Shown here piece by piece: positions 1-59,199 of a stretch of DNA of 64,000 bases. A program made the position numbers and the translations under genes. Position 1 is the first letter of the stretch. Each line of letters opens with the position of its first letter. This DNA comes from an uncultured Candidatus Saccharibacteria bacterium (GTDB taxonomy: Bacteria > Patescibacteriota > Minisyncoccia > Phycocordibacterales > UBA2100), in contig CAZPGE010000004.1 in the NCBI GenBank assembly GCA_964586255.1, positions 32,693 through 96,692 on the forward strand, written 5' to 3'. The notes beneath the pieces were generated by a model that saw only the letters and a program-made list of their open reading frames with translations, was not told where the DNA came from and searched no databases.

Positions 1-969
1 GATGAAAACCCCTCCGATGTGCTGCGCAATAACATCATCACGCTTGTCGGCCTCTTCCGCATCATGCTCGGCGGGCTCACGCCCGAGGAAGACGCCATTA
101 TCGACAAGGCCATCACCGAGACGTACGCCCTCAAAGACATCACGCCGGAGGCCAATTTCGCCGCTGTAGAGCCGCCGCTTCTCTCCGACTTTGAGCTCGT
201 GCTCTCCGGTATGGAAGGCTCAGAGAGTCTCGTGCAGCGCCTCTCCAAGTACACCAAGGGTACCTGGTCAGGCTTTATGAACAGACCGACCAACGTCGAC
301 ATGAACAAAAAGCTCGTCGTCTTTTCCGTGCGCGACATGGAAGACGACCTCAAGCCGGTCGCGATGTACATCATTACGCACCACATCTGGAATACGGTGC
401 GCAAAGAACTACGCAAGCGCCTGCTTGTCATCGATGAAGCTTGGTGGATGATGCGCTCCGAAGATACCGCATCCTTCCTTTTCTCAATTGCGAAGCGAGG
501 TCGTAAATACTATCTAGGCATCTCGACGATTACGCAGGACGTGTCCGACTTCTTGAACTCTCCGTATGGCATCCCGATGATTACAAACTCGTCGATTCAG
601 CTTCTTCTGCGCCAATCGCCAACCTCAGTCGACTTGGTGCAATCCACATTCAAACTTTCCGACGAAGAGAAGTATCTCCTTCTCGAGAGTGATGTAGGGG
701 AGGGCATCTTCTTCGCAGGTCTCAAGCATGTCGCGATTAAGGTCATCGCGTCGTACACCGAAGACCAGATTATTACTTCTGACCCGTCACAAATTCTCGC
801 CATCAAGAAGGCGAAACAAGATCTTGATGCCGTGGACACGCCGACATCCGCAGGCGCTGCTGCTGCCCCCGCACCCGCCCCGATGCTTTCTTCTGCCCCG
901 GCTGCACCGGGCGCTGACACCGCGCCGGTGGGGAAGGCGTTCAGTAGCTCTGACTTGAAAGAGGTATGA
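1..969 (+). CDS. VirB4/TraC-like type IV secretion/conjugation ATPase, C-terminal part (5' end lies outside the window); Ala/Pro-rich tail
   Basis: Reading frame is open from nt 1. Walker-B-like 'LLVIDEAWWMM', 'AKRGRKYYLGISTITQ' and the downstream pattern fit the VirB4 family C-terminal domain. The stop overlaps the next start (ATGA). Confidence 0.6.
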   Translation, partial: DENPSDVLRNNIITLVGLFRIMLGGLTPEEDAIIDKAITETYALKDITPEANFAAVEPPLLSDFELVLSGMEGSESLVQRLSKYTKGTWSGFMNRPTNVDMNKKLVVFSVRDMEDDLKPVAMYIITHHIWNTVRKELRKRLLVIDEAWWMMRSEDTASFLFSIAKRGRKYYLGISTITQDVSDFLNSPYGIPMITNSSIQLLLRQSPTSVDLVQSTFKLSDEEKYLLLESDVGEGIFFAGLKHVAIKVIASYTEDQIITSDPSQILAIKKAKQDLDAVDTPTSAGAAAAPAPAPMLSSAPAAPGADTAPVGKAFSSSDLKEV

Positions 970-1991
970 GAATCGTCGCGCTTTTGGCAATCCTGTTCCT
1001 GGCTTCCCCTGCCTATGCGCAGCAGTTTGATATCCCGGGCGCATCAAATGCGCTCCAGATAGTCACGAGTCCTGCGCAGCCGGCACCGAAAAGCACGGTG
1101 CGTCTCACGCTTCAGAGTCCGATTTTCGACCTCGACGAAGGTGTTATCTCGTGGAGAGTCGACGGAGAACCGCTCTCCGAAGGCATGGGTCTCCGCACGG
1201 TGTCTGTCAACGTCGGTGACGTGGGGCAGTCGATAGATATCTCTGCCACATACGTGAGCGGAGATGACGAGGCACTCGCATTTCTTACCATCACACCCGC
1301 CGGACTTGGCCTCCTCTGGGAAGCTGAGGGCCTGACGCCGGCATTTTACAAGGGGAGGACTCTTCCAGCTGCCGGTGCACGACTTACATTTGTTGCATAC
1401 CCGACCTTCGTCCGGAATGGCGCTCCTGTTGCCGAAAAGGACCTCATCTTCACGTGGCGGCGCGGAGACACGGTACTTGGTACGCTTTCGGGTCGCGGTA
1501 AATCCACGGCAATCATAGACTCGACTGCCTTTTTTGCTTCCGATGTTATATCCGTCGAGGCGCGCACAACAGACGGCTCCATTTCATCCCGTGCGTCGGC
1601 ACGGCTTGTGAGCCCCGAGACCCCCCTGCGGCTCTATGAAAATCACCCGCTCTTCGGACCGCTGTATCACAAGGCATTTGGCGCGACGACCTTTACACCA
1701 GATTCGGAAATGACCTTTATCGCGATACCGTACTTCGCGCCCGCGGCCAACGAGAACAGCTCGGCGCTGCAGTATGAATGGCGAGTCAACCAGCAAAGTG
1801 TTGCGGCCGACACAAAGCGTCCGTCACAGGTAACGATCAACGCATCAGGCTCATCTGGCGTCGCACTCATTGAACTTCTTGTGAGTCATGCCACAAATTT
1901 CTTCTTCGGTTCTGAGGATTCGTGGCAGGTCACATTCTCAAGAGCGGGAGGAACGACCGGGGGAGATTACCCCTTTGGCGCTCAACAATAA
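966..1991 (+). CDS. secreted hypothetical protein (N-terminal signal peptide MRIVALLAILFLASPAYAQQ)
   Basis: Signal-peptide-like N-terminus. Translationally coupled to the VirB4-like gene. No recognisable catalytic motif. Confidence 0.5.
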   Translation: MRIVALLAILFLASPAYAQQFDIPGASNALQIVTSPAQPAPKSTVRLTLQSPIFDLDEGVISWRVDGEPLSEGMGLRTVSVNVGDVGQSIDISATYVSGDDEALAFLTITPAGLGLLWEAEGLTPAFYKGRTLPAAGARLTFVAYPTFVRNGAPVAEKDLIFTWRRGDTVLGTLSGRGKSTAIIDSTAFFASDVISVEARTTDGSISSRASARLVSPETPLRLYENHPLFGPLYHKAFGATTFTPDSEMTFIAIPYFAPAANENSSALQYEWRVNQQSVAADTKRPSQVTINASGSSGVALIELLVSHATNFFFGSEDSWQVTFSRAGGTTGGDYPFGAQQ

Positions 1992-1994
1992 TCT

Positions 1995-3239
1995 ATGAAA
2001 CTCGGCACACCACTACTTCGGTACATAGTCGCGGCCATCATCGTCGTGGTTCTCGGCGGTCTCGGGGGTTGGTACATGTTTATCAATAAGCAAATAGGTT
2101 CTACGGAGGCGCAGGATACCGCGCGCGGGTATGGAGAGGCGGAGACGTTTGGAGGTGGAATCGGGGGCACAATCAACAACCTCGTCGGTGATGTGATTGG
2201 TGGAATACTCAGCAACGACAAGGGGCCGAGTGCTGCGTCTGCACCGAAGCTCTGGCAAATAACACGCACCCCCGTAGCAGGCCATGGCTTCGCGAGTTCG
2301 AGTCCTCGTCTCTATTTCGCAGAACGCGCCTCAGGCAACGTCCTTCTTGCAGACCCCACGACGACAAACGTACAGCGTCTTACCAATACGCTCATTCCCA
2401 AGGTCTTAGAGGCGTACTTCGCGACAGACGGTTCGGTCGTATTGCGCTCTTTAGACGATGACGGGAAGATCCAGTCGTACGCCGCACGAATTGCGACGAG
2501 CACAAGCCCTGCAGCGGGTGACACGCCAAACAAACTGGAGGGTGCATTCCTGCCAGAGGGTATCGTGTCGATGGGAGTGCACTCGACGCCCGACGAGTTG
2601 TTTTTCATCGTGCGGGAGAACAGTGGGTCCGCGGGTATCGTGTCGGGATGGCTCGGTGGAAATCAGAAGCGCACACTCGTATCCGCGCTCTCGGATTGGC
2701 AGGCCATTTTTCTCCAAGATGGCAGCAAATACCTGGTCCAGAAAGCATCGGATGATGTCGCGGGGTATGCATTCAAAATCACCGGGTCCGGGTCCTTGGA
2801 GCGAGTCATGGGGGATTTGCCCGGACTCATCATATTGCCGCGCTCAAACTCGCAGGCGATGCTCTTCAGCACAGCATCAGCCGGCCAGATAGCACTTTTT
2901 GCCCGCGTAAATTCGCAGACTTCTGATGTACGGCTTGCCATCAGGACCCTCGCCGAGAAGTGCGTATGGGCGCCCGATACAAGACTGATTGCCTACTGTG
3001 CAGTGCCGCAAACCGCACCGAGTGGCACCATCCTCCGTGATCGGTACGACGGTAGTGCACACACCGCAGATGCATGGTGGCGCGTCGATGTCTCTGCAAA
3101 TACCGCAGAACAAATATATACACCTGAAATATCGGTGGCGCTCGATGTGGAAAACCCGCAGATAAACAGCGCCGGCACTCACATCGCTTTTATGAATGGG
3201 ACTGACAAGACACTGTGGATGCTAACCCTGAATAAATAG
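1995..3239 (+). CDS. membrane-anchored TolB-like beta-propeller (PD40/WD40-like repeats) protein
   Basis: N-terminal TM helix. Repeated 'SPxL.F..R..G.....D...' and 'GTHIAFMNGTDKTLWML' PD40-like motifs. Lies 4 nt after the previous stop. Confidence 0.45.
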   Translation: MKLGTPLLRYIVAAIIVVVLGGLGGWYMFINKQIGSTEAQDTARGYGEAETFGGGIGGTINNLVGDVIGGILSNDKGPSAASAPKLWQITRTPVAGHGFASSSPRLYFAERASGNVLLADPTTTNVQRLTNTLIPKVLEAYFATDGSVVLRSLDDDGKIQSYAARIATSTSPAAGDTPNKLEGAFLPEGIVSMGVHSTPDELFFIVRENSGSAGIVSGWLGGNQKRTLVSALSDWQAIFLQDGSKYLVQKASDDVAGYAFKITGSGSLERVMGDLPGLIILPRSNSQAMLFSTASAGQIALFARVNSQTSDVRLAIRTLAEKCVWAPDTRLIAYCAVPQTAPSGTILRDRYDGSAHTADAWWRVDVSANTAEQIYTPEISVALDVENPQINSAGTHIAFMNGTDKTLWMLTLNK

Positions 3240-3240
3240 T

Positions 3241-3687
3241 ATGCACGCGCTCCGCATCACGATACAGCTCGCGGTAATCACTCTTGGCGCATGCGCCCTC
3301 GCGCTTCTCAGTGTTGATTTCGCGCACGCACAAGGCAGTTTTGTACCACTCGCACCTGCACCATCAGGCTCGAGATTGGGTCAAATCTACACTTCAAACT
3401 CTCTGACGGGATTCATCAACGGGCTTTTCACGGCAGCCATCGCGGTGGGTGCGATTCTCGCCGTGATGCGACTCGCTTTCGCAGGATACCTCTACATGAC
3501 GACCGATGCTTGGGGCCAAAAGGGAAAGGCGAAAGAGGTGATAGGAGATGTCATTATGGGGCTTCTTCTCCTCCTATCTATTTGGCTCATCTTGAGACAG
3601 ATAAATCCGAAGCTCCTCGACCTCGACATACTACAGAGCCTGAGGCCGACTTCGCAGCTTATTCAGCAAACAGAGAGAGCAACATAG
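3241..3687 (+). CDS. VirB2/TrbC-like pilin-type small membrane protein (signal peptide plus two hydrophobic helices)
   Basis: Signal peptide ending AHA|QG followed by two hydrophobic helices (GLFTAAIAVGAILAVMRLAFAGYLYM; VIGDVIMGLLLLLSIWLIL). This topology is typical of T4SS pilins. It is the last gene of the operon. Confidence 0.4.
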   Translation: MHALRITIQLAVITLGACALALLSVDFAHAQGSFVPLAPAPSGSRLGQIYTSNSLTGFINGLFTAAIAVGAILAVMRLAFAGYLYMTTDAWGQKGKAKEVIGDVIMGLLLLLSIWLILRQINPKLLDLDILQSLRPTSQLIQQTERAT

Positions 3688-3733: not shown

Positions 3734-4243
3734 TTATTCAGCGGAGTACTTGATGACGACACGCCTGTTTCGTCCCTCGCCCTGTGACTCCGTCTTCACG
3801 TTTGGAGCGTCTTGGAGTGTCGTGTGCACAATGAGTCGCTCGTACGCGCTCATTGGAGTGAGTTCTACGTCGTATTGAAATGAACGTGCTCGCTCAGCCA
3901 TCATCAGCGCCTTCGTCTGTATGTCCCGTATCTGTTTGGCCCGGTAGTCGTTGACGTCGATGAGAAACATCGGCGCCTCTTCACCCGCAGGGAGAGGAGC
4001 ACGCTTCTCGACAATCTTTTTCACAAGCATATCAATAGCCTGGATAGTGTCCCCATGCATGCCGATGAGCCGGCGGGCATCATCGGTCTCGATAGAGTAG
4101 ATAGTCTGGCCGGCCATGTCGGACTTCACAATCTTCGAGTATGAAATCCCGAGCGTATCGAGCATTTCTTTGAGGACATCTTCGACTGCATAGGACACTG
4201 CCATATGGTGCGCACTATACCTCGTGAGGCGGTAAATCGGCAA
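3734..4243 (-). CDS. jag: Jag/KhpB RNA-binding protein (KH + R3H domains)
   Basis: R3H/KH-like motifs ('GMHGDTIQAIDMLVKKIV', 'RRVVIKYSAE'). Conserved position downstream of yidC. TTG start with an AGAGGG RBS; an alternative ATG at 4204 is possible. Confidence 0.75.
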   Translation of the reverse strand: MPIYRLTRYSAHHMAVSYAVEDVLKEMLDTLGISYSKIVKSDMAGQTIYSIETDDARRLIGMHGDTIQAIDMLVKKIVEKRAPLPAGEEAPMFLIDVNDYRAKQIRDIQTKALMMAERARSFQYDVELTPMSAYERLIVHTTLQDAPNVKTESQGEGRNRRVVIKYSAE

Positions 4244-4308: not shown

Positions 4309-5037
4309 CTATTTGTTACCCCCGAATCGACGGCCCGAAAGCAGCTCCTGTCCTATCATAAAAAGGTTACTGGTGAGCCAATAGAGTGGCGCTGCAGCTG
4401 AGATGAAGTACGCGATGCCGGCGACCATGACGGGAAGAATGTACCGCGCCTGAAGATCAAACGTGCGTGCCATCTCTGCAGAGAACGATGCCTCAGCCGC
4501 CACCACAGACCCGCGCGGCCCCATAGAGAGTCGCGTGTAGATGAACTGTGAGATGCCCGCAAGTACGGCGAGCACCATACTCTTGCCCGCCATGTCGATG
4601 AGGCCAAGGAACTCCATGTTCACGTTTGCGGGTACCGGAACGAACGCGTAGAGAATATCGGCGTTGATGGTCGGCAATCCGCCGTTGGCGAACACGAAGT
4701 AGAGTCCGAGTAGAACGGGGAGCTGAATGAGGAGGAGAAGGAGCCCCGCAAACGGACTCACTCCACGCTCGCGGTACAGTGCGAAAATTGCTCGACCCTG
4801 TTCTTCCGGCTTGTCTTTGTATTTTTTCTTGAGCTCCTCAATCTCTGGCGCAACACGTTTCATGTCCATCTGCGCCTTGATCGCTTTGCGAGAAAGCGGG
4901 AAGAGAATAAAGCGGACGATGATAGTGACTATGATAACGGCGACACCCATGTCGTGCGTTGGGACCACGTCAACAAAGTACACGAGCGCGTTGTATATCG
5001 GGTCGTACACGACCGTATGGAAGAGAGTGCGTATCAT
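4309..5037 (-). CDS. yidC: membrane protein insertase YidC (short, Gram-positive/CPR-type)
   Basis: Multi-TM protein with YidC/Oxa1 signature. Part of the rpmH-rnpA-yidC-jag synteny. Confidence 0.85.
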   Translation of the reverse strand: MIRTLFHTVVYDPIYNALVYFVDVVPTHDMGVAVIIVTIIVRFILFPLSRKAIKAQMDMKRVAPEIEELKKKYKDKPEEQGRAIFALYRERGVSPFAGLLLLLIQLPVLLGLYFVFANGGLPTINADILYAFVPVPANVNMEFLGLIDMAGKSMVLAVLAGISQFIYTRLSMGPRGSVVAAEASFSAEMARTFDLQARYILPVMVAGIAYFISAAAPLYWLTSNLFMIGQELLSGRRFGGNK

Positions 5038-5070: not shown

Positions 5071-5400
5071 TTACCGAGCGCTACGGACCTCGCGCAGTAG
5101 TGCCTCGATGTCGTGTGCAAGCTCCTGGTACGTTGCTTTCGCCGCATCTTTCTTTGCAAGAAACAGGTACACGCCAGGTGGCGTCAATTGTGCGCTCTTC
5201 TCAAGCACGGCGCGACATCGGCGCCGAATAAGGTTGCGCGTCACTGCTTTCATGGCGACCTTTTTTGACACGACGCACGCAAACTGTGCACTGCCCGTGC
5301 GCGATGCCGATATCGACACAGAGAAAAAACCGCCATGTAGACGGCGAGGGGAGCGCAGCTCCCTGATCTCGGCGCCCGTGAGGCGGTTTTTCTTTGGCAT
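5071..5400 (-). CDS. rnpA: ribonuclease P protein component
   Basis: Basic ~109-aa protein with an RnpA-like sequence, located immediately downstream of rpmH. Confidence 0.85.
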   Translation of the reverse strand: MPKKNRLTGAEIRELRSPRRLHGGFFSVSISASRTGSAQFACVVSKKVAMKAVTRNLIRRRCRAVLEKSAQLTPPGVYLFLAKKDAAKATYQELAHDIEALLREVRSAR

Positions 5401-5403
5401 CGT

Positions 5404-5544
5404 TTAAACGGAAGCGGAGAGGCGCTTGCGTCCTTTTGCGCGACGGCGGTTCAGAACCTTGCGGCCCACCGTGGTCGTCGTTCGTGAACGGAAGCCGTGC
5501 GCTTTGGCGCGCTTTTGCTTCTTCGGCTGATAGGTTCGTCTCAT
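5404..5544 (-). CDS. rpmH: 50S ribosomal protein L34 (46 aa; below the ORF-track size cut-off)
   Basis: Translation [46 protein letters not shown] matches the L34 consensus. The stop lies 4 nt before the rnpA start. Confidence 0.85.
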
Positions 5545-5822: not shown

Positions 5823-7175
5823 ATGATGACCAATCGAGAATTATGGCAGAACGCATTGGTCCAAATAGAACTCGGGACGACGCAGGCGTCGTTTAGAACC
5901 TGGTTTCGCAATACTGACATCGCAAATCGTGACGGGGGAGTCGTCCAAGTCGCCGTCCCGTCAAAGATTGTAAAGGAGTGGCTGCTTGAAAAACACCACA
6001 AGCTTGTTTTGAAGGCACTGCGCAGTCTCGACAACACCATCCGCACCGTTGAGTACGTGGTACACCGCTCCGCGCCGAGCGCCGAGCGAAAAGCTCCGCG
6101 CGCCGAGAAGCCCCAAGAGAATGCGTCGTTCGATTTACAATCTCTCTATATAGATAAGCGCGACAACCTGAACCCGCGTTACACTTTTGAGACATTTGTC
6201 GTCGGTCCCTTCAACCAACTCGCTCACGCGGCGGCAAAAGCGGTGCTCGATAGACCCGGCCTCACGTACAATCCTCTCTTTATCTATGGCTCCACCGGGC
6301 ATGGAAAGACACATCTCATACAAGCAGTGGGCAACTACTTCAAGAAAGCGCACGCCAACAAGAAAGTGCTCTATGTCACATCGGAGCGCTTTGCGGTGGA
6401 TTACATCAACTCCGTGCGTGCGGGACGAGCCAACAACTTCAAAGACCAGTACCGTCAGTACGACGTGCTCATCATGGACGACATCCAGTTCATTGCGAAC
6501 ACAGAAAAGACGCAGGAAGAGCTCTTCCACCTCTTCAACGCACTCCACGACAACAACAAACAAATCGTGTTCTCGAGCGATAAACACCCGTCACTTCTCC
6601 CCGGCTTTGAGGAGCGCCTCAAGGGCCGCTTTGCCGCGGGCGTGATTGCTGAGATACCCGAGCCCGACGTGGAGTCACGCATCGCCATCATCAAGGCGAA
6701 GATTGAGCAGCACGGCTTCTCAATCCCTGAAGACATCATCCAATACATTGCAGAGAACGTACGGGGCAACATACGCGAACTCGAGGGGGTACTCAATATG
6801 ATCGTTTGCAAATCGCAGCTCAAGGGAAAGGCAATATCCCACGCCGACGTGCGAGCGCTCATCAAACACAACGTAAAGCCCAATAGAGGTGTCTCTATAG
6901 ACGAGGTGGTCCGCAGGATAGCGCAATACTACGAAGTGCCGGAGAAGAGCATCTACGAAAAGACTCGCAAAAAGGAGGTGGTGAAGCCCCGTCAAATAAT
7001 CATGTACATGCTCCGAGAAGAATTTAGTGTCTCGTACCCGTCGATAGGAGAGAAACTTGGGGGTCGTGACCACACCACCGTCATCCACTCGTGCGAGAAG
7101 ATAAAGGAAGAGATAAAAATGAACAACGCACTCGAGCAAGAACTCGACCACATCCGTACTCTCATCCACGCATAG
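5823..7175 (+). CDS. dnaA: chromosomal replication initiator DnaA
   Basis: AAA+ Walker A 'GSTGHGKTHL', 'VLIMDDIQF', and a C-terminal DNA-binding domain. Confidence 0.95.
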   Translation: MMTNRELWQNALVQIELGTTQASFRTWFRNTDIANRDGGVVQVAVPSKIVKEWLLEKHHKLVLKALRSLDNTIRTVEYVVHRSAPSAERKAPRAEKPQENASFDLQSLYIDKRDNLNPRYTFETFVVGPFNQLAHAAAKAVLDRPGLTYNPLFIYGSTGHGKTHLIQAVGNYFKKAHANKKVLYVTSERFAVDYINSVRAGRANNFKDQYRQYDVLIMDDIQFIANTEKTQEELFHLFNALHDNNKQIVFSSDKHPSLLPGFEERLKGRFAAGVIAEIPEPDVESRIAIIKAKIEQHGFSIPEDIIQYIAENVRGNIRELEGVLNMIVCKSQLKGKAISHADVRALIKHNVKPNRGVSIDEVVRRIAQYYEVPEKSIYEKTRKKEVVKPRQIIMYMLREEFSVSYPSIGEKLGGRDHTTVIHSCEKIKEEIKMNNALEQELDHIRTLIHA

Positions 7176-7471
7176 TGTATGAACACAGCCTTCATTGGTA
7201 TTTCCGTCGATACACAGCGCGGCGTTGTTCGTGCACCGAAAAAAGTCTCTGTATATCCTGTGGAAAACACGGGGAGAGTGGTCGCACAACTCACGAATAA
7301 GTTTGCCGGAAAAGCCATGGCGCGAGTTACCCCCGTTTCATCCCCGCTTCACGCAAGAGTTTTCAACAGGTCACGTACAACTATTTCATCTAGATTCTGC
7401 GCGATATTTCCGACTTGTCCCCGCTATACACAGGACTAATAGTAGTAATAGAATATATAAGTAAAAAGTAT
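7176..7471. promoter_or_regulatory. dnaA-dnaN intergenic region with a DnaA-box-like site and an AT-rich stretch (possible DNA-unwinding element / second oriC module)
   Basis: TGTGGAAAA (7259-7267) is the reverse complement of TTTTCCACA. AT-rich 7380-7470 lies immediately upstream of dnaN. Confidence 0.3.
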
Positions 7472-8569
7472 ATGAAGATAACAACAACAAAAGAAAAACT
7501 TCTTAACGCGATATTGATGGTAGAGAGAATCACAGGAAAAAAAGAATCTCTCCCGATACTTTCTTGTGTTCTTATCGATACGACGAGTGACATAACACTT
7601 CGCGCTACAAATCTTGAAGCCGGTATTGAAGTGACCGTTCCCGGTGAAATATCAGAAAAAGGAGTTGTAGCTGTTTCAGCTACGATACTTTCACAAACTA
7701 TCCGCTCGATAGGTGGCGATAAAATATCGCTCTCAAGCGAAGAGGGGAATCTTCTTATCGAATCTCGCGGGACCAAGACACTTATAAAGGCAGTGCCTCA
7801 TGAGGAGTTCCCTGTGCTCTCAAGTGAATCAGGAAAATCAAACGTCTCTCTTTCCAGAGAGCGACTCATTCACGGTATTCAATCGGTTTCATACGCTGCA
7901 TCACCTTCGATGATTCGGCCGGACCTCGGAAGTATCTATATTTCTATCCAGGATGGTTCGATGGTCTGTGTCGCGACCGATTCGTTTCGTCTCGCCGAGA
8001 AGGTGGTTTCTGAGACCGGTTCTAAGACGTCGGATGAACTCCTTATCCCTCTCAAGCATGCACTCGAGCTCGTCCATGTACTCGAAAAACTCGATGATGA
8101 GAAGATTTCACTCTCGGCCGATGATTCACAGCTTGTTGTTGTGGGCTCCGGGACACGGTTTGTATCTCGTGTGGTCGATGCCACATTCCCCAACTATAAA
8201 GAAATTATTCCGAAAAAGTTTACGACTGAGGCCACAATGCTCAAAAATGACCTTGGTGAGATGCTCCGCAAAGCACGCGTGTTTTCAGGGAATGAGATGC
8301 ACGTGGGCCTCCATGTGTATCCGAAGAAAAAGATTTTTACTGCGACCGCGCGTAGTGCTGATGTAGGTGAGATGTCCGACTCTATCGATGCGGCCCTCTC
8401 AGGAGAGGATCTCGATATCAATTTCCACATAGGATATCTCGCCGACTGCCTGAGCTCTATCGCATCAGATTCTGTGATACTGAGTTTCTCCGGTGCAGGC
8501 CGTCCACTCGTGATTCGTGGTGTTTCGGATAGCAATTTCACATACCTGGTGATGCCACTCAACCGATAG
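7472..8569 (+). CDS. dnaN: DNA polymerase III beta sliding clamp
   Basis: 366 aa from the ATG at 7472, with three-domain clamp-like sequence. The ORF-track start at 7415 is probably an upstream extension. Confidence 0.9.
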   Translation: MKITTTKEKLLNAILMVERITGKKESLPILSCVLIDTTSDITLRATNLEAGIEVTVPGEISEKGVVAVSATILSQTIRSIGGDKISLSSEEGNLLIESRGTKTLIKAVPHEEFPVLSSESGKSNVSLSRERLIHGIQSVSYAASPSMIRPDLGSIYISIQDGSMVCVATDSFRLAEKVVSETGSKTSDELLIPLKHALELVHVLEKLDDEKISLSADDSQLVVVGSGTRFVSRVVDATFPNYKEIIPKKFTTEATMLKNDLGEMLRKARVFSGNEMHVGLHVYPKKKIFTATARSADVGEMSDSIDAALSGEDLDINFHIGYLADCLSSIASDSVILSFSGAGRPLVIRGVSDSNFTYLVMPLNR

Positions 8570-19955: not shown

Positions 19956-21647
19956 CTACGAAATCGTCTCAAGCATGACCTCGTCGTTGAGGTCGACGAC
20001 GCGGGAGAGTTCGTCGTACGAGGTGACACCTTGGAGTATCTTCACCGCACCGTCTTGTGACATGCGGCGGATTTTCTGATGCTTCGCTGCGGCCCAGATA
20101 TCGCGTTCGCTCGATGAGTGGCGCACGCACTCTTCTATTTCTTTATCCATAAGAATCACTTCCACTACGGCGATGCGTCCTTTGTATCCGAGGCCGCCGC
20201 ATTTGTCGCAGCCTTTGGGGAGCCACATGGTGTCGCGATTTTGCGGGAGCTCATCGGCGTGCGGTATGTGCGCGAGGAGCTGCTCCATCTTCGTCTTGAT
20301 ATCGCCGGTAATCGGTGTCGGTACGCGGCACACGGGGCAGAGGCGGCGCACGAGGCGCTGCGCCATCGCGGTCGTGAGAGCAGCGCCGAGGATGTCCGGC
20401 GCGACACCCATATCGACGAGGCGGGGGAATGTACCTGCTGCATCGTTGGTGTGTAGCGTGGAGAACACGAGGTGACCGGTAAGCGATGCGTTGACCGCCG
20501 TCGAAGCGACTTCAGCATCGCGGATTTCGCCGACCATGATGATGTCGGGGTCTTGGCGGAGTGTGGAGCGGAGGCCCTGTGCAAAGGTGTAATCCCGTGA
20601 GACTTGTGTCTGCACGATACCGGGCAGGTGGTATTCGACCGGGTCTTCGATGGTGACTATCTTTATTTCCGGTGAGTGCACTTGGCGCAAGAATGCGTAG
20701 AGTGTCGTCGTCTTACCGCTGCCGGTCGGTCCTGTGTTGAGAATCATACCGTTGGGCTTTGCGATTTCTTTCGCGAAAATATCCATGAGGTATTTGTCGA
20801 AGCCGAGCGCTTCCATCGGGAGTGCAATCGTCGTCGGGTCGAGGAGGCGCATGACGATAGTCTCTGCGTACGAGCCTGGGAGTACCGATGCGCGTATTTC
20901 GACTTCTTTACCACCCACCACGATAGAGAAGCGGCCGTCTTGTGCCGCGTTTTTGATGTTGAGCTTGAGGCCCGAGAGCAGCTTGAGGCGGCTCGACACG
21001 AGTGAGTATGTGGCGGCGTCAAACATGAGCACCTCCACGAGCACGCCGTCGAGGCGATAGCGCATACGCACACCTTCTTCTTCCGGCTCGAGGTGCACGT
21101 CGGATGCACCGAGCGCGAGTGCGCCGGCCATGATGATTTCGAGCACGCGTGAGATGCGGTGCGCGTCTTTGCTGCCCGTGTGGCTCGCAATCTCTGTCTT
21201 TACATCCTGGAGCGTCTTGAGCTTCTCAAGCATTTGTTGAATCGTCTCGTTGGAGAGGGTGAGGATGCCTGCTTCCGTCTCGGTCGCGTATGAAAGGTCG
21301 TGAAAGCGGTCCCACGCGTGTTCGAGCGAGGCCTGAGAGACGATAAAGCGCCGCACCTCGTAGCCGAGGCGTTCGATAGTCTGGAGCGACTTGAGCGAAT
21401 CCTCGCGCTCTGGAGCGCGCATTCCTACGAAAATGATTTTATTCACCTTGCGAAAAGGGGCGATCTCCACCGCGCGCGCCTCGTCCTCAGGTACGAGCTT
21501 GAGCGCATCGGTATCGATGGATTTGCTCGTAAGGTCGACGTACTCGACGCCGTATCGATGCGAGAGCATCTCGGCGAGCTGCTCCTCCTCTTTTGCGCGC
21601 AGCTCAGTCAGGCGCTCCGCTGCTTTCTTGTCGTTGAACGTCGCCAT
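19956..21647 (-). CDS. pilB: type IV pilus assembly ATPase PilB (GspE family)
   Basis: 'GPTGSGKTTTL' Walker A, Asp/His boxes, and a tetracysteine 'CPVC...CDKCGG'. ATG at 21647; the ORF track extends to an upstream GTG at 21665. Confidence 0.85.
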   Translation of the reverse strand: MATFNDKKAAERLTELRAKEEEQLAEMLSHRYGVEYVDLTSKSIDTDALKLVPEDEARAVEIAPFRKVNKIIFVGMRAPEREDSLKSLQTIERLGYEVRRFIVSQASLEHAWDRFHDLSYATETEAGILTLSNETIQQMLEKLKTLQDVKTEIASHTGSKDAHRISRVLEIIMAGALALGASDVHLEPEEEGVRMRYRLDGVLVEVLMFDAATYSLVSSRLKLLSGLKLNIKNAAQDGRFSIVVGGKEVEIRASVLPGSYAETIVMRLLDPTTIALPMEALGFDKYLMDIFAKEIAKPNGMILNTGPTGSGKTTTLYAFLRQVHSPEIKIVTIEDPVEYHLPGIVQTQVSRDYTFAQGLRSTLRQDPDIIMVGEIRDAEVASTAVNASLTGHLVFSTLHTNDAAGTFPRLVDMGVAPDILGAALTTAMAQRLVRRLCPVCRVPTPITGDIKTKMEQLLAHIPHADELPQNRDTMWLPKGCDKCGGLGYKGRIAVVEVILMDKEIEECVRHSSSERDIWAAAKHQKIRRMSQDGAVKILQGVTSYDELSRVVDLNDEVMLETIS

Positions 21648-21703
21648 GGCGCTATTGTAACGCACTTCGCTCGTGAACGAGGTGTTACAATTTGCTCATC
21701 TAT

Positions 21704-23602
21704 ATGAGTGAGGCCCCCAAAAGAGAACGACGTTTGAGCACTGAGCCTCACGAAGAATTTGGATTGGGTCACGAAGCGCCCGTGAGCGACTTGGTGAGTG
21801 TTAATCGGAACGGAGAAGAGGTCTGGGTACATCCCGACGAAGTGGCGCAAGTGCTGAGTGACGCCAAAAAGGCACCTTCTCCCAGTGAGTCGGGACCATC
21901 GCCTGACTCGAAGCGAACGGGACCCGAAATCCCCGCCGGAAAGAAGCCGAGAGAAGCGTTTCTGAGTGGGGTGCGTGAAGTCGGTCGCAACTTTGGACCC
22001 GGCGGACACAAGGTAAAAGACGAGAGCGTCTTTAGGGCGGCACTCGGGAAGTATGCCGACTACCGTACACGGTGGGGAGGCGCGGAAGCGTTTGCCGCGG
22101 CCGTGAACGATCTCGAAGTTGACGATGTGAAAGCATTCCGCGAACGCACTACGGAGCTTGAACAGGAGCTTGCCGATAAAAACCTCTCCAAGCCCGAAGC
22201 ACCGGAAAGTTCGACGAACTCTCGCCCAGGAGAAGCGCCTGACGCTACAGGGCGCATGACAGAAGAGGAGCTGCTTAAAGGTCTTGAGGGACTATCGGAG
22301 CCAGAGGCAGCGTCCAATACCATCCCGCCCCACTTCGAGACAGCATATAAGCGACTCGTAGAGAAATTTAGAAAAGATGGAACGCGTCGTGAGGATCAAA
22401 TACCGCTCGCATCGAGAGGTGTGATTGGGAATAGTGAGTACGCAGCGTTCAAAGCATTCGTCGACGAGCGAGACGCAGCGGCTGAGCGAGCAAAACAGGC
22501 AGCAAAGAGCGCGAGAAAAAGCGATGGCGGAAGTGCGGGAAAAGAAAAGGGTCCTGCACCGAAGGAGTCGGCCAAAGACAGAGATGCGCGACTCGCGGTT
22601 CTCGCCGACGATTTCGACAAGAAGGCCGGAGCCGATAATTCGATCGCTATGGACTTGTTTCAAGACATCGACGCGACACTCTCAGATGAAGAGAGAGGTA
22701 TCTTTATCGAAAAAGTACGAGGCCTCGGCTGGAAAATAAACGGCGATGTCCATCAAGTGCCCGGAGCTCTCGAGCTCATACCGCTTGGTAACACGGCAGA
22801 GAAGCTTACCGAAGCGCTCGGAGCGCCAGCAGGTAAAGTCGACGGGATTCCGTTTTGGGTACTTGAAAATGGTGATGGCGTAATGCTCAGTGGTGGCCCG
22901 CAAGAGGGGCGCTATCCGCAGCGATATCAAGACGGTGGGTTCTCGGAAATCCGGGGCTCACTCTATGAATACAAAGACGGGAAATTCCGAAAAATAAGTG
23001 AAAAAGAAGTCGCGGCGCGTCGTGCTGCTGCTATCGCCGTAAATGAGCAAGACAAGGCTGCGTCGAAAGAGCAGCTAAGAGAAAAGGCTAAGCGAGAGCG
23101 TACACAACCAGAGCCGGAAAGAGATCGCATAGAGCCAGAGGAGCGCGCGGCTGAGCGACCGGCACGCGACGAAACTCGTAGGGAGCGCCCTGAGGCGCGC
23201 AGGGAGGAGCGCGCCGAGAGGGAAAGCTCAGAGAAATCGCGCTCGTTTGAGGAGGCGCTCAAGATATTTGTGAAGACCTACAGCAAAGAAAAAAGAAATG
23301 CGGGGAGAGCCTTCCGCGATGCGATAAGCGGCTTGTCGGACAAAAATAGAAAGAGACTCATCGAATTTGCCGTCGAGACCACTGATATACCACGCCCAAT
23401 TCTCGAGCGCATACATCGTGACGTCGGTGATGAGAGCGAACGTGACGAAAGTAGCGATGGAGTAGCGCGCCCGGCACCGGTAGAGCGTGAAGTCGACAGG
23501 ATGCTCTCCGGTCGCGCGCAGCCACGTGTGAGCGAGCGTAGGGAATCACGAGAGAGTGAAAATATCGACGACGAGATAGATAGAATGCTCGGACTCAAAT
23601 AG
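21704..23602 (+). CDS. hypothetical highly charged (E/R/K-rich) protein, about 632 aa
   Basis: Long ORF, divergent from pilB. Low-complexity ER-rich segment. No recognisable domain. Confidence 0.5.
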   Translation: MSEAPKRERRLSTEPHEEFGLGHEAPVSDLVSVNRNGEEVWVHPDEVAQVLSDAKKAPSPSESGPSPDSKRTGPEIPAGKKPREAFLSGVREVGRNFGPGGHKVKDESVFRAALGKYADYRTRWGGAEAFAAAVNDLEVDDVKAFRERTTELEQELADKNLSKPEAPESSTNSRPGEAPDATGRMTEEELLKGLEGLSEPEAASNTIPPHFETAYKRLVEKFRKDGTRREDQIPLASRGVIGNSEYAAFKAFVDERDAAAERAKQAAKSARKSDGGSAGKEKGPAPKESAKDRDARLAVLADDFDKKAGADNSIAMDLFQDIDATLSDEERGIFIEKVRGLGWKINGDVHQVPGALELIPLGNTAEKLTEALGAPAGKVDGIPFWVLENGDGVMLSGGPQEGRYPQRYQDGGFSEIRGSLYEYKDGKFRKISEKEVAARRAAAIAVNEQDKAASKEQLREKAKRERTQPEPERDRIEPEERAAERPARDETRRERPEARREERAERESSEKSRSFEEALKIFVKTYSKEKRNAGRAFRDAISGLSDKNRKRLIEFAVETTDIPRPILERIHRDVGDESERDESSDGVARPAPVEREVDRMLSGRAQPRVSERRESRESENIDDEIDRMLGLK

Positions 23603-26477: not shown

Positions 26478-27104
26478 ATGTTGTACTTCTATAGCGGGAC
26501 CGATACAGACAAGGCGAGAAATGCTCTCAACGGTTCTGTTGAAAAGCTGGCAAAAAAGACTCCCGTGGTTCGTATCACTGATGTGCATACGAGAGCAGAT
26601 GTAGACGCTGCACTTCAGGGTGGGGGCATGTTTGGAGGGGAGCGCGTTGTCGTTTTTGACAATGTCTATGCGAACGACGACTTACGAGAAGTTCTTGCAG
26701 AATCGCTACCAAGGATTGCTAAGTCTAAAGATATTTTTTTCATGATTGAGGGCGCGCTTGATGTCGCTACGCGAAAGTCGGTGGAGAAGTATGCGACCGA
26801 ATTTGAGCGCTTTGATGCGAAGAAAGCTGCCAAAGAGGAGACGATTTTCTCGCTCGCCAACGCGCTTCAGGCAGGGAAGAAGAAAGACCTGTGGGTCGGC
26901 TATCAGCGAGAGCTCCATAGTGGCAAAGCTCCGGAGGCGATACATGGCGTGCTTTTTTGGGCTGCAAAGCAGCTCCTCTTAAAATCTGATACACCAAGAG
27001 CCCGAGAGCTTGTGGCGGAGCTCGCCGCGCTGCCGCACGAAGCGAGGCGACAAGGCTTTGAGCTCGAATATGCACTCGAACACTTTGTCCTCTCACGCAC
27101 GTGA
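26478..27104 (+). CDS. holA: DNA polymerase III delta subunit-like protein (short HolA-like)
   Basis: Position and pattern ('VVVFDNVY...', 'LLK...AELAALPHEARRQGFELEYALE') resemble short delta subunits. Weak call. Confidence 0.45.
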   Translation: MLYFYSGTDTDKARNALNGSVEKLAKKTPVVRITDVHTRADVDAALQGGGMFGGERVVVFDNVYANDDLREVLAESLPRIAKSKDIFFMIEGALDVATRKSVEKYATEFERFDAKKAAKEETIFSLANALQAGKKKDLWVGYQRELHSGKAPEAIHGVLFWAAKQLLLKSDTPRARELVAELAALPHEARRQGFELEYALEHFVLSRT

Positions 27105-27121
27105 TAGTATTTATCTCACGT

Positions 27122-28870
27122 ATGCTCAAACAAATGCGAACAGCTTTTGTTGTCGTCTTTCTTAGTATCGTCGTCTCTGCTGTGTTTCTAGGCGCCCTTT
27201 CTTACATGCCACGTGAGACTGGGGCACTCTTCATGGACGCAGACATGATGTATTGCATCGGCTTGCCGTGCCCGTGTGGCAAAGGACCAGGTGGGAATCC
27301 CCCATCACCTTGCGGGGGCGTGGGGAAAGGCGTCCTTCAATGTCCATGCAAAGATTTGACAAGCGGATTCAGTACTACGGGGAAATGCTCTGCAGTCGGC
27401 GTTTGTACAGCTTCGGGCACGAGCGGTAAGGATGGTTTCGGTCTCGACCAAGTTTCGAAGATTCTCGGCGATCTCATGGGGAAGCTCATGGGGCAAAAAG
27501 GGGGGGATACGGCGCAACCGCCTCCACCGCCGGGCGGAGACACAGCCAGCAAGATTCCCCCCACATGTACACTCACCTCTAGTACGGTTTCTTCCAATGC
27601 ATCGTCCACCACAGCGACGCTCTCGTGGTCGAGCTCGTATGAAGCTACGAGCGCTTCGATAACGCCCAACATTGGCACCGTCTCAGTCAATGGCTCCCAA
27701 TCGATTACTATCACTGAGACGACCCCATACTCCATGTCGGTGACTGGGCCAGGAGGTACAGGGTACTGCTCTTCGATTGTGGTGGGTTTTGGCGACGGAA
27801 GCACAGACAAGTGCTCGGGCATCTTCGCAGATATCTATGGATGTGAAGATGATGGCGACGATGACGAAGAAACACCGGACACCAGCACTACGACCCCGGG
27901 TCTTTCGGCGAGTCCAACAGGTGGCACGGCACCTCTCACTGTCGTATTCACAGGCAATGCAGGCAGTGCGGGGTACACCATCAAGTATGGTGACGGTAAG
28001 ACCAATGCGGTCGGTTGCGAACACGGAAGCTGCTCACCGAGCGCTTCGCCACTCACCATCAACAGGAGTCACGTGTATGAACAGCCAGGTACGTACACCG
28101 CGAAGCTTCTCAAGCACTTCACCTCCGTGCAATCAAATTGCGCGGGCGAGGATTGCAACGCAATCGATTCCGTCACGATTACAGTCACCGCGCAGCAGAC
28201 TACTTCCGGTACGACGAACACGACAAGCTCAACAACCGTCCCTGTGTTCTCGAACCCCGCGTACCTATTGCCGGGCTTAAGGGGAGATATCAAAATGTTG
28301 AATTCTGGCGGCACGGTCGTCGTGGGTGCGCGCAATCAAAACAACACGGAGGTAGCAGGATTTTACGGCGGCACTACGTTCTCCGGGCCTGCGACTGGCG
28401 TGGTGGCGACGCTCTGCCGCACGCGACCGTGGGCAGGTAACTTCCTCTCGTATATACTCCCGGCCAATTTCTTTGACAGTCTCTGTGTCGCACGCGGCTA
28501 CACCGTCGGTGCGCCTGCTACTCAGCAGACAAGCGGCAGCGCGCAGACGACGGGCACGTCTCAGGCCAAGCCAAAGCCGACACAGAAGCCCGCAACTTCG
28601 ACCCCATCTGTATCCAATGTTCCTCCCAAAGTGCGGGTATGGGCAGTGCCGTCTACGGTGCCACTTGGCTCTCGTGCTTCGGTATTCTGGACTTCGCAGG
28701 GTGTGGCGAGCTGTCTCGTGGCGAGCCCAGACGGAAGTTTCTCTCAGACGACACTCTCTGGAGGTGCGTCCACTGTATCTCTCACGGGACCGACCACGTT
28801 TACGATTTCATGCCTCACCGCAGATGGGACTCCCATCACTGACTTCGTGACAATCAATCTCGCGATCTAG
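27122..28870 (+). CDS. Cys-rich, Ser/Thr-rich cell-surface protein with an N-terminal membrane anchor and Ig-like C-terminal modules
   Basis: N-terminal TM. Many Cys, a poly-P/G linker and an acidic DDGDDDEE stretch. The C-terminal about 85-aa module ('VWAVPSTVPLGSRASVFWTSQGVASCLVASP...ISCLTADG') is homologous to modules in the 35720 protein. Confidence 0.5.
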   Translation: MLKQMRTAFVVVFLSIVVSAVFLGALSYMPRETGALFMDADMMYCIGLPCPCGKGPGGNPPSPCGGVGKGVLQCPCKDLTSGFSTTGKCSAVGVCTASGTSGKDGFGLDQVSKILGDLMGKLMGQKGGDTAQPPPPPGGDTASKIPPTCTLTSSTVSSNASSTTATLSWSSSYEATSASITPNIGTVSVNGSQSITITETTPYSMSVTGPGGTGYCSSIVVGFGDGSTDKCSGIFADIYGCEDDGDDDEETPDTSTTTPGLSASPTGGTAPLTVVFTGNAGSAGYTIKYGDGKTNAVGCEHGSCSPSASPLTINRSHVYEQPGTYTAKLLKHFTSVQSNCAGEDCNAIDSVTITVTAQQTTSGTTNTTSSTTVPVFSNPAYLLPGLRGDIKMLNSGGTVVVGARNQNNTEVAGFYGGTTFSGPATGVVATLCRTRPWAGNFLSYILPANFFDSLCVARGYTVGAPATQQTSGSAQTTGTSQAKPKPTQKPATSTPSVSNVPPKVRVWAVPSTVPLGSRASVFWTSQGVASCLVASPDGSFSQTTLSGGASTVSLTGPTTFTISCLTADGTPITDFVTINLAI

Positions 28871-30063: not shown

Positions 30064-30306
30064 CTACTCGCCCTTCTCTTCTAGAATCTCGGCAGCCTTA
30101 AGGGCACTGTCCTGCAGGTCTGCAATTTTGGCATCAGCGAGGCGTGCTGTTACCGCATCGGAAAAAGAAGCAAGCAGCATCTCGCTCTGCGTATCTTCCG
30201 GTAGTTCGGAAAAGTGTTCGAGCATAAAATCCTTGAGCGCAGATTCGTCGCCGGCGTCCAAAAGGCGATCTATCTCGGCGCGAAGTTGTTCTTGATTTAG
30301 GGCCAT
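30064..30306 (-). CDS. hypothetical small acidic protein (80 aa)
   Basis: Overlaps the upstream gene end by 10 nt (operon-like). Helical, acidic. Confidence 0.45.
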   Translation of the reverse strand: MALNQEQLRAEIDRLLDAGDESALKDFMLEHFSELPEDTQSEMLLASFSDAVTARLADAKIADLQDSALKAAEILEEKGE

Positions 30307-31487
30307 AGTGATGCAGCGTGAGTTTTAATGTCTGGTTTTGATTTGAGGAATAGATTGAGAAGCGCCGTAAAGATGCCTTTACCAACCTTTTTCTTTTGAA
30401 GAGTTACTTCAGAATCTACAAATGAGTCGATGAATGCGCTCTTCTCTGCGGGGGAGTACGCCGACAGGCTCTTCTTCTTGAGTCGTTTACTCTCCGCTTT
30501 CAGCGCTTCACCAAAGCGCTTCTTCACTGCCCCCTCCTCAAACTCTTCTCGTGCTGCTCGGAGGTCTTGGATGGTGTTGACGTTGGTTTCAGGCATGTCC
30601 TTCATCTTCCCGCCCTCTATCATGACGCGCTGCATCTCGAGCCGCATTTCAGGGGTGATAGAGGCCTTGAGGACCTTTGCGATATCAGCTAAGTGAAGGT
30701 TGCTCTTTTGGAGTAGATCGCGCTGGTGTTGAAATGACTCGACAAGAGTGCGGGCGCGTCGATGAGAAATAGCGCTCCCGCTGACGATGTCGGCGACTCT
30801 CATCATAATGTTCATGCTTTCTCGCGCGGTACGTTCAATCATCGACTTCTCACCTGAGTCGAATCCGCTCGAAAGGCCCAGACTCTTTGTGACGTACCGC
30901 GCGAGCTCACTTTCTGGGATTCCCGTCTTTTCTAAAGCGGCAGAGACTTTCGTATTCACGCTCCGTGCCCAACCGCCCTCGCTGAGGGTACGCTCTTCCG
31001 ACATCGACTTAACAAGTTTTGAGTATGCCTTTGCATCTTCTCGCGAGAGTGTATCGAGTCGGCTCTTGAGAAAATCGTGGGCCCTTTCAAGTCCAATCTG
31101 TTTGACCATGAGGCCAACACTCTTGTCCGTATCGGCAATGTCGCGGACGTAGTCCGGTGTAAAAATCTGCTCGAGCCGGCCCATCTCGGCACTGCGTATG
31201 TTGTAACCTTTGACCGACTCATCGACGTAGGTCTGCTGGCTTTCTGTCAAAAGACGCTTGTTTTCAAGAGCATCAATGATTGGCTTTGCCTTGCGGCTGT
31301 CTTTCGCTCCGAGAAACTGCAGAAACTTGGCCTGCTCCTCAGGATCCTGCCAGATATCCTCCTGCGACTTTGCGTGTTCGCCGAGCTCCATCTGCTCGCC
31401 GGAAAGAGGGTCTTTGACAGCAGCTTTCTCAGCCTTTTCCTCGATACTTCTCCGTACTTTGCGGAGTTCTATTCCCATACGCAGCAT
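30297..31487 (-). CDS. hypothetical alpha-helical protein (396 aa)
   Basis: Long ORF with no recognisable motif. Confidence 0.5.
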   Translation of the reverse strand: MLRMGIELRKVRRSIEEKAEKAAVKDPLSGEQMELGEHAKSQEDIWQDPEEQAKFLQFLGAKDSRKAKPIIDALENKRLLTESQQTYVDESVKGYNIRSAEMGRLEQIFTPDYVRDIADTDKSVGLMVKQIGLERAHDFLKSRLDTLSREDAKAYSKLVKSMSEERTLSEGGWARSVNTKVSAALEKTGIPESELARYVTKSLGLSSGFDSGEKSMIERTARESMNIMMRVADIVSGSAISHRRARTLVESFQHQRDLLQKSNLHLADIAKVLKASITPEMRLEMQRVMIEGGKMKDMPETNVNTIQDLRAAREEFEEGAVKKRFGEALKAESKRLKKKSLSAYSPAEKSAFIDSFVDSEVTLQKKKVGKGIFTALLNLFLKSKPDIKTHAASLWP

Positions 31488-31955: not shown

Positions 31956-32426
31956 ATGAAAGAAGTGGCAGTACTTTTGCACAACATTCGGAGCGCATAC
32001 AATGTGGGCTCGATATTCCGCACCTGTGATGCGGCGGGCGTCACGCATGTCTATTTGAGCGGCTATACGCCGCGTCCCATCGACCGATTCGGTCGATCGC
32101 AGAAAGATATCGCCAAGACGGCTCTTGGTGCCGAGACGTCAGTACCGTGGCACTTTGTGAAATCTCCCGGCCCACTTCTGCGCGCAGCGCGCGCAGACGG
32201 GTGGTGTATTGTCGGCATCGAGCAACATGCGCACTCGACTGATTATCGGGCGCTCAAGAAAGGGGAGCGGACACTTTTTATTCTTGGCAATGAAGTGCGA
32301 GGCATTTCTTCACAGTTGCTCGCGAATTGCGACGAAATCGTCGAGATACCCATGCATGGGAAGAAAGAGTCACTCAATGTTTCGGTCGCCGCCGGTGTAG
32401 TGCTCTTTGGTACGCTCGAGAATTAG
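31956..32426 (+). CDS. SpoU/TrmH-family RNA 2'-O-methyltransferase (TrmL-like size)
   Basis: 'NVGSIFRTCDAAGV', 'LGNEVRGIS' and 'IPMHGKKESLNVSVAAGVVLF' are SPOUT motifs. Confidence 0.75.
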   Translation: MKEVAVLLHNIRSAYNVGSIFRTCDAAGVTHVYLSGYTPRPIDRFGRSQKDIAKTALGAETSVPWHFVKSPGPLLRAARADGWCIVGIEQHAHSTDYRALKKGERTLFILGNEVRGISSQLLANCDEIVEIPMHGKKESLNVSVAAGVVLFGTLEN

Positions 32427-33397: not shown

Positions 33398-33404
33398 GCA
33401 CGTA

Positions 33405-43596: not shown

Positions 43597-43599
43597 ATT

Positions 43600-59195: not shown

Positions 59196-59199
59196 CCAT

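Follow-up and report, generated by a model that had tools for sequence, protein, structure and literature searches.

Distal genes of a probable host-directed, relaxase-less type IV secretion operon of the Patescibacteria clade: VirB4, two predicted extracytoplasmic proteins and a VirB2-like pilin

Type IV secretion systems (T4SS) have recently been recognised in Patescibacteria. VirB4 was found in 2,417 of 3,035 genomes of this group (about 80%), forming a monophyletic clade nested in the mating-pair-formation class MPF_FATA (PMC12102498, Quinonero-Coronel et al. 2025). The virB4 genes are accompanied by genes for TrsD, PrgI/VirB3, VirB6 and VirB2-like pilins (PF18895 or PF04956), usually without a relaxase, and the clusters of Paceibacteria and Microgenomatia are located close to dnaA, dnaN, rnpA, rpmH and ksgA (PMC12102498). 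By transposon sequencing, the T4SS and pilin genes of Southlakia epibionticum, in which coupling and relaxase proteins are missing, were found to be essential for epibiotic growth (PMC10633639, Wang et al. 2023); no T4SS had been shown before to be essential to the organism that encodes it. The function of these systems is called unknown, and effector delivery or uptake of host molecules has been speculated (PMC12857230, PMC11665869). Here we analyze a locus of this kind at the start of a 64,000-nucleotide (nt) stretch of contig CAZPGE010000004.1, referred to as the window. A first-pass annotation of the window, made from the letters alone, had considered such machinery uncommon in reduced genomes of the candidate phyla radiation type. 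The survey figures contradict this, and the genes often lie by dnaA, as they do here (PMC12102498). The possible part in DNA uptake or host interaction that the annotation suggested had likewise been speculated on in the literature.

The first four genes of the window are probably the end of a chromosomal, relaxase-less T4SS operon of the Patescibacteria clade, which would encode a non-conjugative, host-directed pilus or conduit machine. As part of this explanation, the system would derive from monoderm (MPF_FATA) conjugation machinery that lost its link to the transfer of plasmids or integrative and conjugative elements (ICE), and its owner would be a Kaiserbacteria-like member of the class Paceibacteria. 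The list of open reading frames (ORFs) of the window places four of them on the plus strand in 1-3687, at the positions claimed beforehand (lengths in amino acids, aa):

1..969, plus strand: 3' part of virB4, an open frame from the first base with its 5' end beyond the window; residues 340-661 of 661 aa (322 C-terminal residues).
966..1991, plus strand: ORF2, a secreted protein of 341 aa with three immunoglobulin (Ig)-like domains (AlphaFold2 model, Foldseek, synteny).
1995..3239, plus strand: ORF3, a bitopic membrane protein of 414 aa with a beta-propeller (AlphaFold2 model, Foldseek, synteny).
3241..3687, plus strand: precursor of a VirB2-like T4SS pilin, 148 aa (PF18895, topology).

The junctions bore out the proposed coupling by overlapping or adjacent stop and start codons. 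The virB4 and ORF2 genes share a 4-nt ATGA overlap, with a ribosome-binding site (AAAGAGG) upstream, and the gaps that follow are 3 nt (ORF2-ORF3) and 1 nt (ORF3-pilin); within this operon, 2.3 kb separate virB4 from the pilin gene downstream. Homologue searches gave 95 matches for ORF2, 158 for ORF3 and 77 for the pilin. These counts, together with confident models for ORF2 and ORF3 and an order and strand kept in 80 related genomes, indicate that the four genes are real and not chance ORFs. The 80 loci come from species-representative genomes and were gathered with the ORF3 profile, which makes all synteny counts given here conditional on the presence of ORF3; the cluster proteins were mapped onto them by phmmer. 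When the ORFs of the window were searched (hmmsearch) with the ORF2, ORF3 and pilin profiles, no paralogues were found, and the pilin gene is single rather than part of an array.

It had been noted that the operon runs off the window start, leaving upstream channel components beyond view. This is indeed the case: the parent contig (ENA ERZ27247837 k141_1173019, 178.8 kb), found by exact-protein look-up, supplies the upstream genes, including one for a putative VirB6-like channel protein. The stretch of it used here (L001) shows 0 mismatches to the window over 11,991 nt and adds 10 kb upstream. The full T4SS operon covers about 12 kb (L001 500-12722), the window genes being its distal third. 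After ksgA, the genes follow on the same strand in the order 291-254-546-778-191 aa, PrgI/VirB3, TrsD, VirB4, ORF2, ORF3 and pilin. Those beginning upstream of the window are:

Upstream, plus strand: 291-aa protein with an N-terminal membrane helix; no family match.
Upstream, plus strand: 254-aa protein (275 aa from an upstream GTG start), with a membrane helix in the longer form only; no family match.
L001 2280-3920, plus strand: secreted protein of 546 aa, encoded before the VirB6-like gene; of its 12 cysteines, 5 are invariant.
Upstream, plus strand: 778-aa polytopic protein; several membrane segments are predicted ahead of a charged C-terminal region.
Upstream, plus strand: 191-aa protein; no family match.
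Upstream, plus strand: PrgI/VirB3, 171 aa (35.7 bits, cutoff 27).
L001 7391-8053, plus strand: TrsD-like protein, 220 aa (TrsD 1.1e-6; N-terminus of VirB4 models 2.8e-10).
L001 8019-10004, plus strand: full-length VirB4, 661 aa (NCBIfam conju_CD1110, 363 bits, cutoff 325).

The genes for the 291-, 254-, 546- and 191-aa proteins, none with a family match, are conserved. The 778-aa protein itself matched no Pfam or NCBIfam family. Three of 30 syntenic homologues, at best with 1.9e-10, match Pfam TrbL/VirB6 (PF04610), and by transitivity through these homologues the protein can be considered VirB6-like. For the 546-aa protein, which phmmer detected in 30 loci, all closer relatives, there was no Pfam, NCBIfam or PDB sequence match, a profile search of its family against the PDB included. 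When the families of the 778-aa and 546-aa proteins were searched as profiles against the PDB, low-complexity or coiled-coil noise came up, or nothing. Neither a VirB8 nor a hydrolase was detectable in the cluster. No family match to a relaxase or VirD4 coupling protein was obtained from 10 kb upstream to 60 kb downstream (upstream proteins and scanned window ORFs), nor was any integrase family matched in the 10 kb upstream or in the scanned ORFs of the 64-kb window.

The VirB4 fragment encoded in the window matched the NCBIfam families conju_CD1110 (1.3e-44), TraC (1.7e-28) and VirB4_CagE (1.6e-15), as well as Pfam P-loop_TraG (4e-15). The Walker B motif, LLVIDEAW, starts at window nt 421; Walker A, AKSGAGKS, was read from the sequence in the 5' part upstream of the window, and the C-terminal tail is rich in Ala and Pro. 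Judged from these matches and motifs, the truncated gene encodes a T4SS ATPase that belongs to the VirB4 family and to the monoderm (FATA) type, both Walker motifs being intact. The VirB4-like C-terminus recognised by the first-pass annotation was thus correctly assigned, the full protein lying above the CD1110 cutoff, and the ATPase is of the T4SS type rather than FtsK, to which it showed no resemblance. The N-terminal domain of VirB4 is a separate TrsD-like polypeptide, whose gene overlaps that of the 661-aa ATPase by 35 nt in another frame. Separate matches were also obtained in the related loci, for TrsD in 66, for VirB4 in 71 and for PrgI in 63 of the 80.

The 148-aa protein passed the threshold of Pfam PF18895 (T4SS_pilin; 27.8 bits, cutoff 26.6). 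A weak match to the NCBIfam pilin-like conjugal transfer protein Mbov_0395 (1.1e-3) was also obtained, and the comparison with TrbC/VirB2 (PF04956) gave E=0.21. Among 32 relatives, PF18895 is matched by 28 (best 1.1e-10) and PF04956 by 3 at 0.01 or below. Hydropathy analysis located hydrophobic segments at residues 3-30, 54-86 and 97-123. Alignment of the 32 relatives showed a signal peptide with a conserved site between AxA and Q, and in the window protein cleavage is predicted between AHA and QG, after residue 30, to leave a mature pilin of about 118 aa with an isoelectric point of 9.6. A conserved loop, YM-TTDAWGxKGKAKE, connects its two helices (about 54-86 and 97-123). By family membership and topology, the proposed VirB2/TrbC-like pilin with a signal peptide and two hydrophobic helices is thus supported, its topology being conserved in the relatives; the signal-peptide cleavage is likewise predicted, at a conserved site. 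The profile of the pilin family found no pilin among PDB sequences, the sole match being a chance one to XPF (E=0.66). Alignment by hhalign with Agrobacterium VirB2 (sequence from pTi1D1609) was in register and not significant (E=0.11). The link to canonical VirB2 is therefore based on PF18895 and on the literature.

ORF2 starts with a Sec-type signal peptide, with a predicted cleavage site between MRIVALLAILFLASPAYA and QQ, followed by three tandem Ig-like beta-sandwich domains. The AlphaFold2 model (mean predicted local distance difference test score, pLDDT, 89.1) is all-beta and contains three Ig-like sandwiches. Foldseek matched it to Ig-domain arrays (phage Hoc at 1.2e-7, Sidekick, complement C3), and members of its family gave weak matches to Ig_3, BiPBP_C, PKD and Invasin_D3. 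The sequence contains zero cysteines, no membrane anchor and no sortase motif. Of the 71 related loci having virB4, 70 also contain ORF2, there immediately following virB4. ORF2 is a conserved accessory component of the T4SS cluster in Paceibacteria.

At its N-terminus, ORF3 has a membrane helix (about 5-43), from which a disordered linker rich in Gly (about 48-77) leads to an extracytoplasmic beta-propeller (86-411). In the AlphaFold2 model (mean pLDDT 86.6), the all-beta domain has 27 strands, and the propeller most likely has seven blades. The protein has just two cysteines, C323 and C335; both are invariant, which fits the extracytoplasmic location. The protein had been called TolB-like; the propeller was right and TolB was not. 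In Foldseek, ORF3 resembles WD40-type folds, with TolB ranking 23rd among hundreds of generic propellers, and neither ORF3 nor its family members matched any Pfam propeller family. TolB, encoded in the tol-pal operon, is a six-bladed PD40 propeller that carries an alpha/beta domain at its N-terminus and whose signal peptide is cleaved off. ORF3 as TolB was rejected: it has no PD40 repeats or TolB N-terminal domain, and the genes around it are virB4, ORF2 and that of the pilin. Neither the window nor the 10 kb upstream showed any tol or pal gene. Thus, what ORF3 has in common with TolB of the Tol-Pal system is an extracytoplasmic beta-propeller, in ORF3 held by a membrane helix and encoded in a T4SS operon. 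The ORF3 family, with 3,686 cluster representatives at 50% identity (E<=1e-3), has no Pfam entry. Like ORF2, ORF3 is a conserved accessory gene of the T4SS cluster. The ATPase and the pilin are therefore separated by two exported proteins, as annotated: ORF2 through its Sec-type signal peptide, and ORF3 as a membrane-anchored, extracytoplasmic protein.

The 80 related loci come from Kaiserbacteria, Nomurabacteria, Zambryskiibacteria, Taylorbacteria and other Parcubacteria-type metagenome-assembled genomes (MAGs). Moreover, the relatives of the neighbouring genes, where named, are all from Kaiserbacteria, Paceibacterota or Patescibacteria MAGs. ORF3 lies inside the T4SS cluster in 80/80 loci, which shows that ORF3 is always in a cluster, not that every cluster has ORF3. 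The shared order is (254)-(546)-778-191-PrgI-TrsD-VirB4-ORF2-ORF3-pilin, then jag and yidC on the minus strand, dnaA and dnaN. The order ORF2-ORF3-pilin occurs in 45 loci and ORF2-pilin-ORF3 in 27 more distant ones. All cluster genes are on one strand in 78 of the 80 loci; yidC was seen in 73 and dnaA in 64, amounting to most of those with enough flank. Two MAGs whose isolate names start with MFD have a split virB4, in 9 ORFs (L063) and 3 ORFs (L071); these breaks are probably frameshift errors and do not mark pseudogenes. One locus, L069, is labelled as a Nanoarchaeia archaeon yet bears the bacterial T4SS cluster, and many "uncultured Candidatus Saccharibacteria" records bear the Kaiserbacteria-type locus; record titles are therefore unreliable for taxonomy.

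The genes of the cluster are conserved to very different degrees. Median identity to the window protein, in close and distant relatives respectively, was 89% and 74% for VirB4, 86% and 52% for DnaA, 80% and 56% for TrsD, 62% and 45% for PrgI, 50% and 34% for the pilin, 40% and 27.5% for ORF2, 39% and 27.5% for ORF3, and 33% and 25% for the VirB6-like protein. VirB4, with identities of 69-95% across the related loci, is better conserved than DnaA in close and distant relatives alike (loci L010-L088 against the window proteins). The cytoplasmic motor is thus as constrained as core replication proteins, and the exposed parts evolve two to three times faster. Strong conservation of VirB4 combined with fast-evolving surface parts fits a core host-facing machine and not a mobile element.

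On its 3' side, the operon meets a convergent gene and then the replication genes:

3734..4243, minus strand: jag/khpB, an R3H and KH RNA-binding protein (R3H 4.3e-16; Jag_EloR 8.9e-30).
4309-5037, minus strand: yidC.
5071-5400, minus strand: rnpA.
5404-5544, minus strand: rpmH.
5823-7175, plus strand: dnaA, starting 2.1 kb from the pilin stop.
7415-8569, plus strand: dnaN ORF, after dnaA.

The jag/khpB gene is outside the T4SS, and this convergent neighbour is the 3' boundary of the operon; a scan for terminators on the plus strand, between the stop codons of the pilin gene and of jag, returned none. The GC content is even across the window. The cumulative GC-skew minimum falls at dnaA/dnaN (window 5823-8569), which places the 12-kb T4SS operon on the lagging strand, head-on towards the origin. 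The jag-yidC-rnpA-rpmH genes, unlike the T4SS operon, are co-directional with replication. The orientation of the operon is kept in 78/80 related loci. The literature on origin-proximal T4SS treats only the gene-dosage effect.

In the working model drawn from established T4SS biology, Sec/YidC would insert the pilin, signal peptidase would process it, and hexamers of VirB4 would dock at the membrane on VirB3 and VirB6. With TrsD and VirB3 linking it to the VirB6-like channel, VirB4 would spend ATP to pull pilin from the membrane, and the pilin would polymerise into a short pilus or a conduit across the wall. From their location and synteny only, the tethered propeller of ORF3 and the Ig array of ORF2 may serve as extracytoplasmic scaffold or adhesive parts. 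The apparatus would contact a host cell and move macromolecules, be they protein, DNA or other molecules, between the two cells in one direction or the other, without conjugation of a mobile element.

The chromosomal, non-mobile character of the system is supported by its fixed position, the uniform GC content, the conservation of VirB4 above that of DnaA, and the lack of relaxase or VirD4 matches among the scanned proteins. The opposite reading, in which the genes are the mating-pair-formation module of an intact or degraded ICE exporting DNA, draws on the best family matches, which are to conjugation ATPases of Gram-positive ICE and plasmids (CD1110, TraC, TrsD, PrgI). It has to contend with the same chromosomal place by yidC and dnaA in 80 species-level genomes, with a VirB4 conserved beyond DnaA in a uniform GC background, and with the failure to detect any integrase, relaxase or type IV coupling protein (T4CP) among the proteins scanned in the 74 kb around the cluster. 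Moreover, only 103 of 3,035 Patescibacteria genomes have relaxases, rarely near virB4 (PMC12102498). Fixed position, high conservation and no detected nearby relaxase or T4CP led us to reject conjugation, and we regard an ICE module as highly improbable. A machine importing DNA is less easily separated from the host-directed one, with which it overlaps, substrate and direction being what differs: a VirB4-powered pilus or channel would take up host or environmental DNA for nucleotides or recombination, as in archaeal Ced and H. pylori ComB. A cluster with no relaxase or coupling protein match agrees with this; T4SS have been proposed as a nucleotide-acquisition route in S. epibionticum, where comEC is dispensable (PMC11665869), and co-localise with competence genes in the class ABY1 (PMC12102498). 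VirB4 also partially matches NCBIfam DNA_import_CedB (1.3e-8), over about 70 residues around Walker B. However, at 33.9 bits this match is far under the cutoff of 700 and concerns the generic ATPase core only, the cluster yielded no CedA-like, ComEC-like or DNA-binding component, and in Patescibacteria such import is so far a proposal. We consider DNA import unlikely.

The place of ORF2 and ORF3 in the machine is argued by their start/stop coupling, the presence of ORF2 in 70/71 loci, the occurrence of the pilin gene on either side of ORF3, and their extracytoplasmic location combined with fast evolution, which they share with the pilin and the VirB6-like protein (27-50% identity). They could instead be unrelated, co-transcribed envelope proteins binding wall or host, with VirB4 and the pilin as the sole T4SS components: an Ig array and a propeller of WD40 type are both generic folds, neither protein matches a known T4SS component family, and no known T4SS is reported with a propeller subunit. 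Such passengers would have kept their place between virB4 and the pilin gene down to 25-30% identity, with start and stop codons coupled to those of their neighbours and with the ORF3 family within a T4SS cluster in 80/80 loci; in some loci the pilin gene itself has come to lie between ORF2 and ORF3. We find this rather improbable. Going further in the other direction, ORF2 and ORF3 might be Paceibacteria-specific structural subunits, a wall-spanning collar and a distal adhesin replacing the undetected VirB8, VirB5 and adhesin components. This is a tentative idea, possible though somewhat doubtful; if true, it would imply an undescribed T4SS architecture with a propeller subunit, in which fast-evolving surface parts set host specificity.

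Several points weigh against the host-directed T4SS as we propose it. Paceibacteria T4SS are known from genes alone, and the roles given to ORF2 and ORF3, whose folds are generic, come from synteny and predicted location only. Pilus formation is deduced solely from family membership, the PDB search having yielded no pilin and hhalign an E of 0.11, and the 778-aa protein, without a family match of its own, bears a VirB6 label that is only transitive. A VirD4 or relaxase gene could sit elsewhere in the genome, several large window ORFs having no family assignment. Finally, the 80 loci were chosen through ORF3, on whose presence the synteny statistics depend.

The rest of the window contains the following genes of interest:

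19956-21665, minus strand: PilB (T2SSE 2.4e-114), away from the T4SS.
41939-43075, plus strand: PilM (PF11104), away from the T4SS.
43123-44480, plus strand: three small genes (157, 183 and 110 aa) following PilM; two were scanned and had no family match.
59149-60354, plus strand: ATP-citrate lyase-family gene 1 (Citrate_bind 2.4e-50, Citrate_synth_N 1.3e-27).
60351-62150, plus strand: ATP-citrate lyase-family gene 2, overlapping gene 1 (Citrate_synt 1.3e-26, Ligase_CoA 1.4e-12).
21692-23602 (636 aa), 27101-28870 (589 aa) and 35720-38197 (825 aa), plus strand: ORFs without a Pfam match at E<=1e-3 in the Pfam scan.
30297-31487 (396 aa) and 32423-33448 (341 aa), minus strand: ORFs without a Pfam match at E<=1e-3 in the same scan.

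Of the separate type IV pilus set (pilB, pilMNO) listed in the first-pass annotation, PilB and PilM were seen, and pilN and pilO are only possible: the small genes after PilM may be pilN/pilO-like. For a reduced genome of the Kaiserbacteria-like kind, the AclB/AclA-like pair seems surprising. Riboflavin-related genes for a flavokinase, a Lum_binding protein (riboflavin synthase-type) and DMRL synthase lie at about 39.2-40.7 kb (L089 7298-8706).

The locus matches the Patescibacteria T4SS described in 2023-2025, and the system itself is not new. It offers a clean and complete example from the Kaiserbacteria/Paceibacteria branch, which is almost without cultured members. It also brings to light two extracytoplasmic proteins, conserved and so far unannotated, whose genes lie between virB4 and that of the pilin. 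Both are concrete targets for studying, structurally and genetically, the connection of ultra-small epibionts to their hosts. Neither "propeller" nor "immunoglobulin" appears as a word in PMC12102498; the fold-level description and strict synteny of ORF2 and ORF3 may be a small addition.

Among known systems, the pilin can be compared with the VirB2/TrbC pilins of diderm T4SS (Agrobacterium VirB2, RP4 TrbC), with which it has in common a small size, a long cleavable signal peptide, a two-helix hairpin and a virB4 cluster. Direct similarity to these is not significant, and the mature window protein, of about 118 aa, is longer. Archaeal Ced and H. pylori ComB also have a VirB4-family ATPase without a relaxase or coupling protein, making an uptake direction possible, but the ATPase core alone matches CedB and no CedA or ComB-specific components were detected in the window cluster. 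The monoderm MPF_FATA systems (pGO1 trs, pCF10 prg, C. difficile CTn2/CD1110) have the same VirB4 family, a TrsD-like protein, PrgI/VirB3 and, if the transitive label of the 778-aa protein is right, a polytopic VirB6-like protein in common with the locus, and likewise no outer-membrane core proteins. These systems are borne by plasmids or ICE and include a relaxase, a T4CP, a VirB1-type hydrolase and a VirB8-like protein, without a VirB2 pilin, whereas the window cluster has a fixed chromosomal place and a pilin, and no detectable relaxase, T4CP, hydrolase or VirB8.

The described Patescibacteria-clade T4SS, including SEML1_0006-0019 of Southlakia epibionticum, agree with the locus in the MPF_FATA-type VirB4 with an adjacent TrsD, in PrgI/VirB3, the tentatively assigned VirB6-like protein and the PF18895 pilin, in the chromosomal place by dnaA, dnaN, rnpA, rpmH and ksgA, and in having no relaxase or coupling protein in the cluster. 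The T4SS of Saccharimonadia has six divergent pilins in an array, where the present operon has a single pilin gene. Finally, no peptidase or lysozyme genes follow virB4 here, unlike in the described systems of the clade; the triple-Ig protein and the propeller are found instead.

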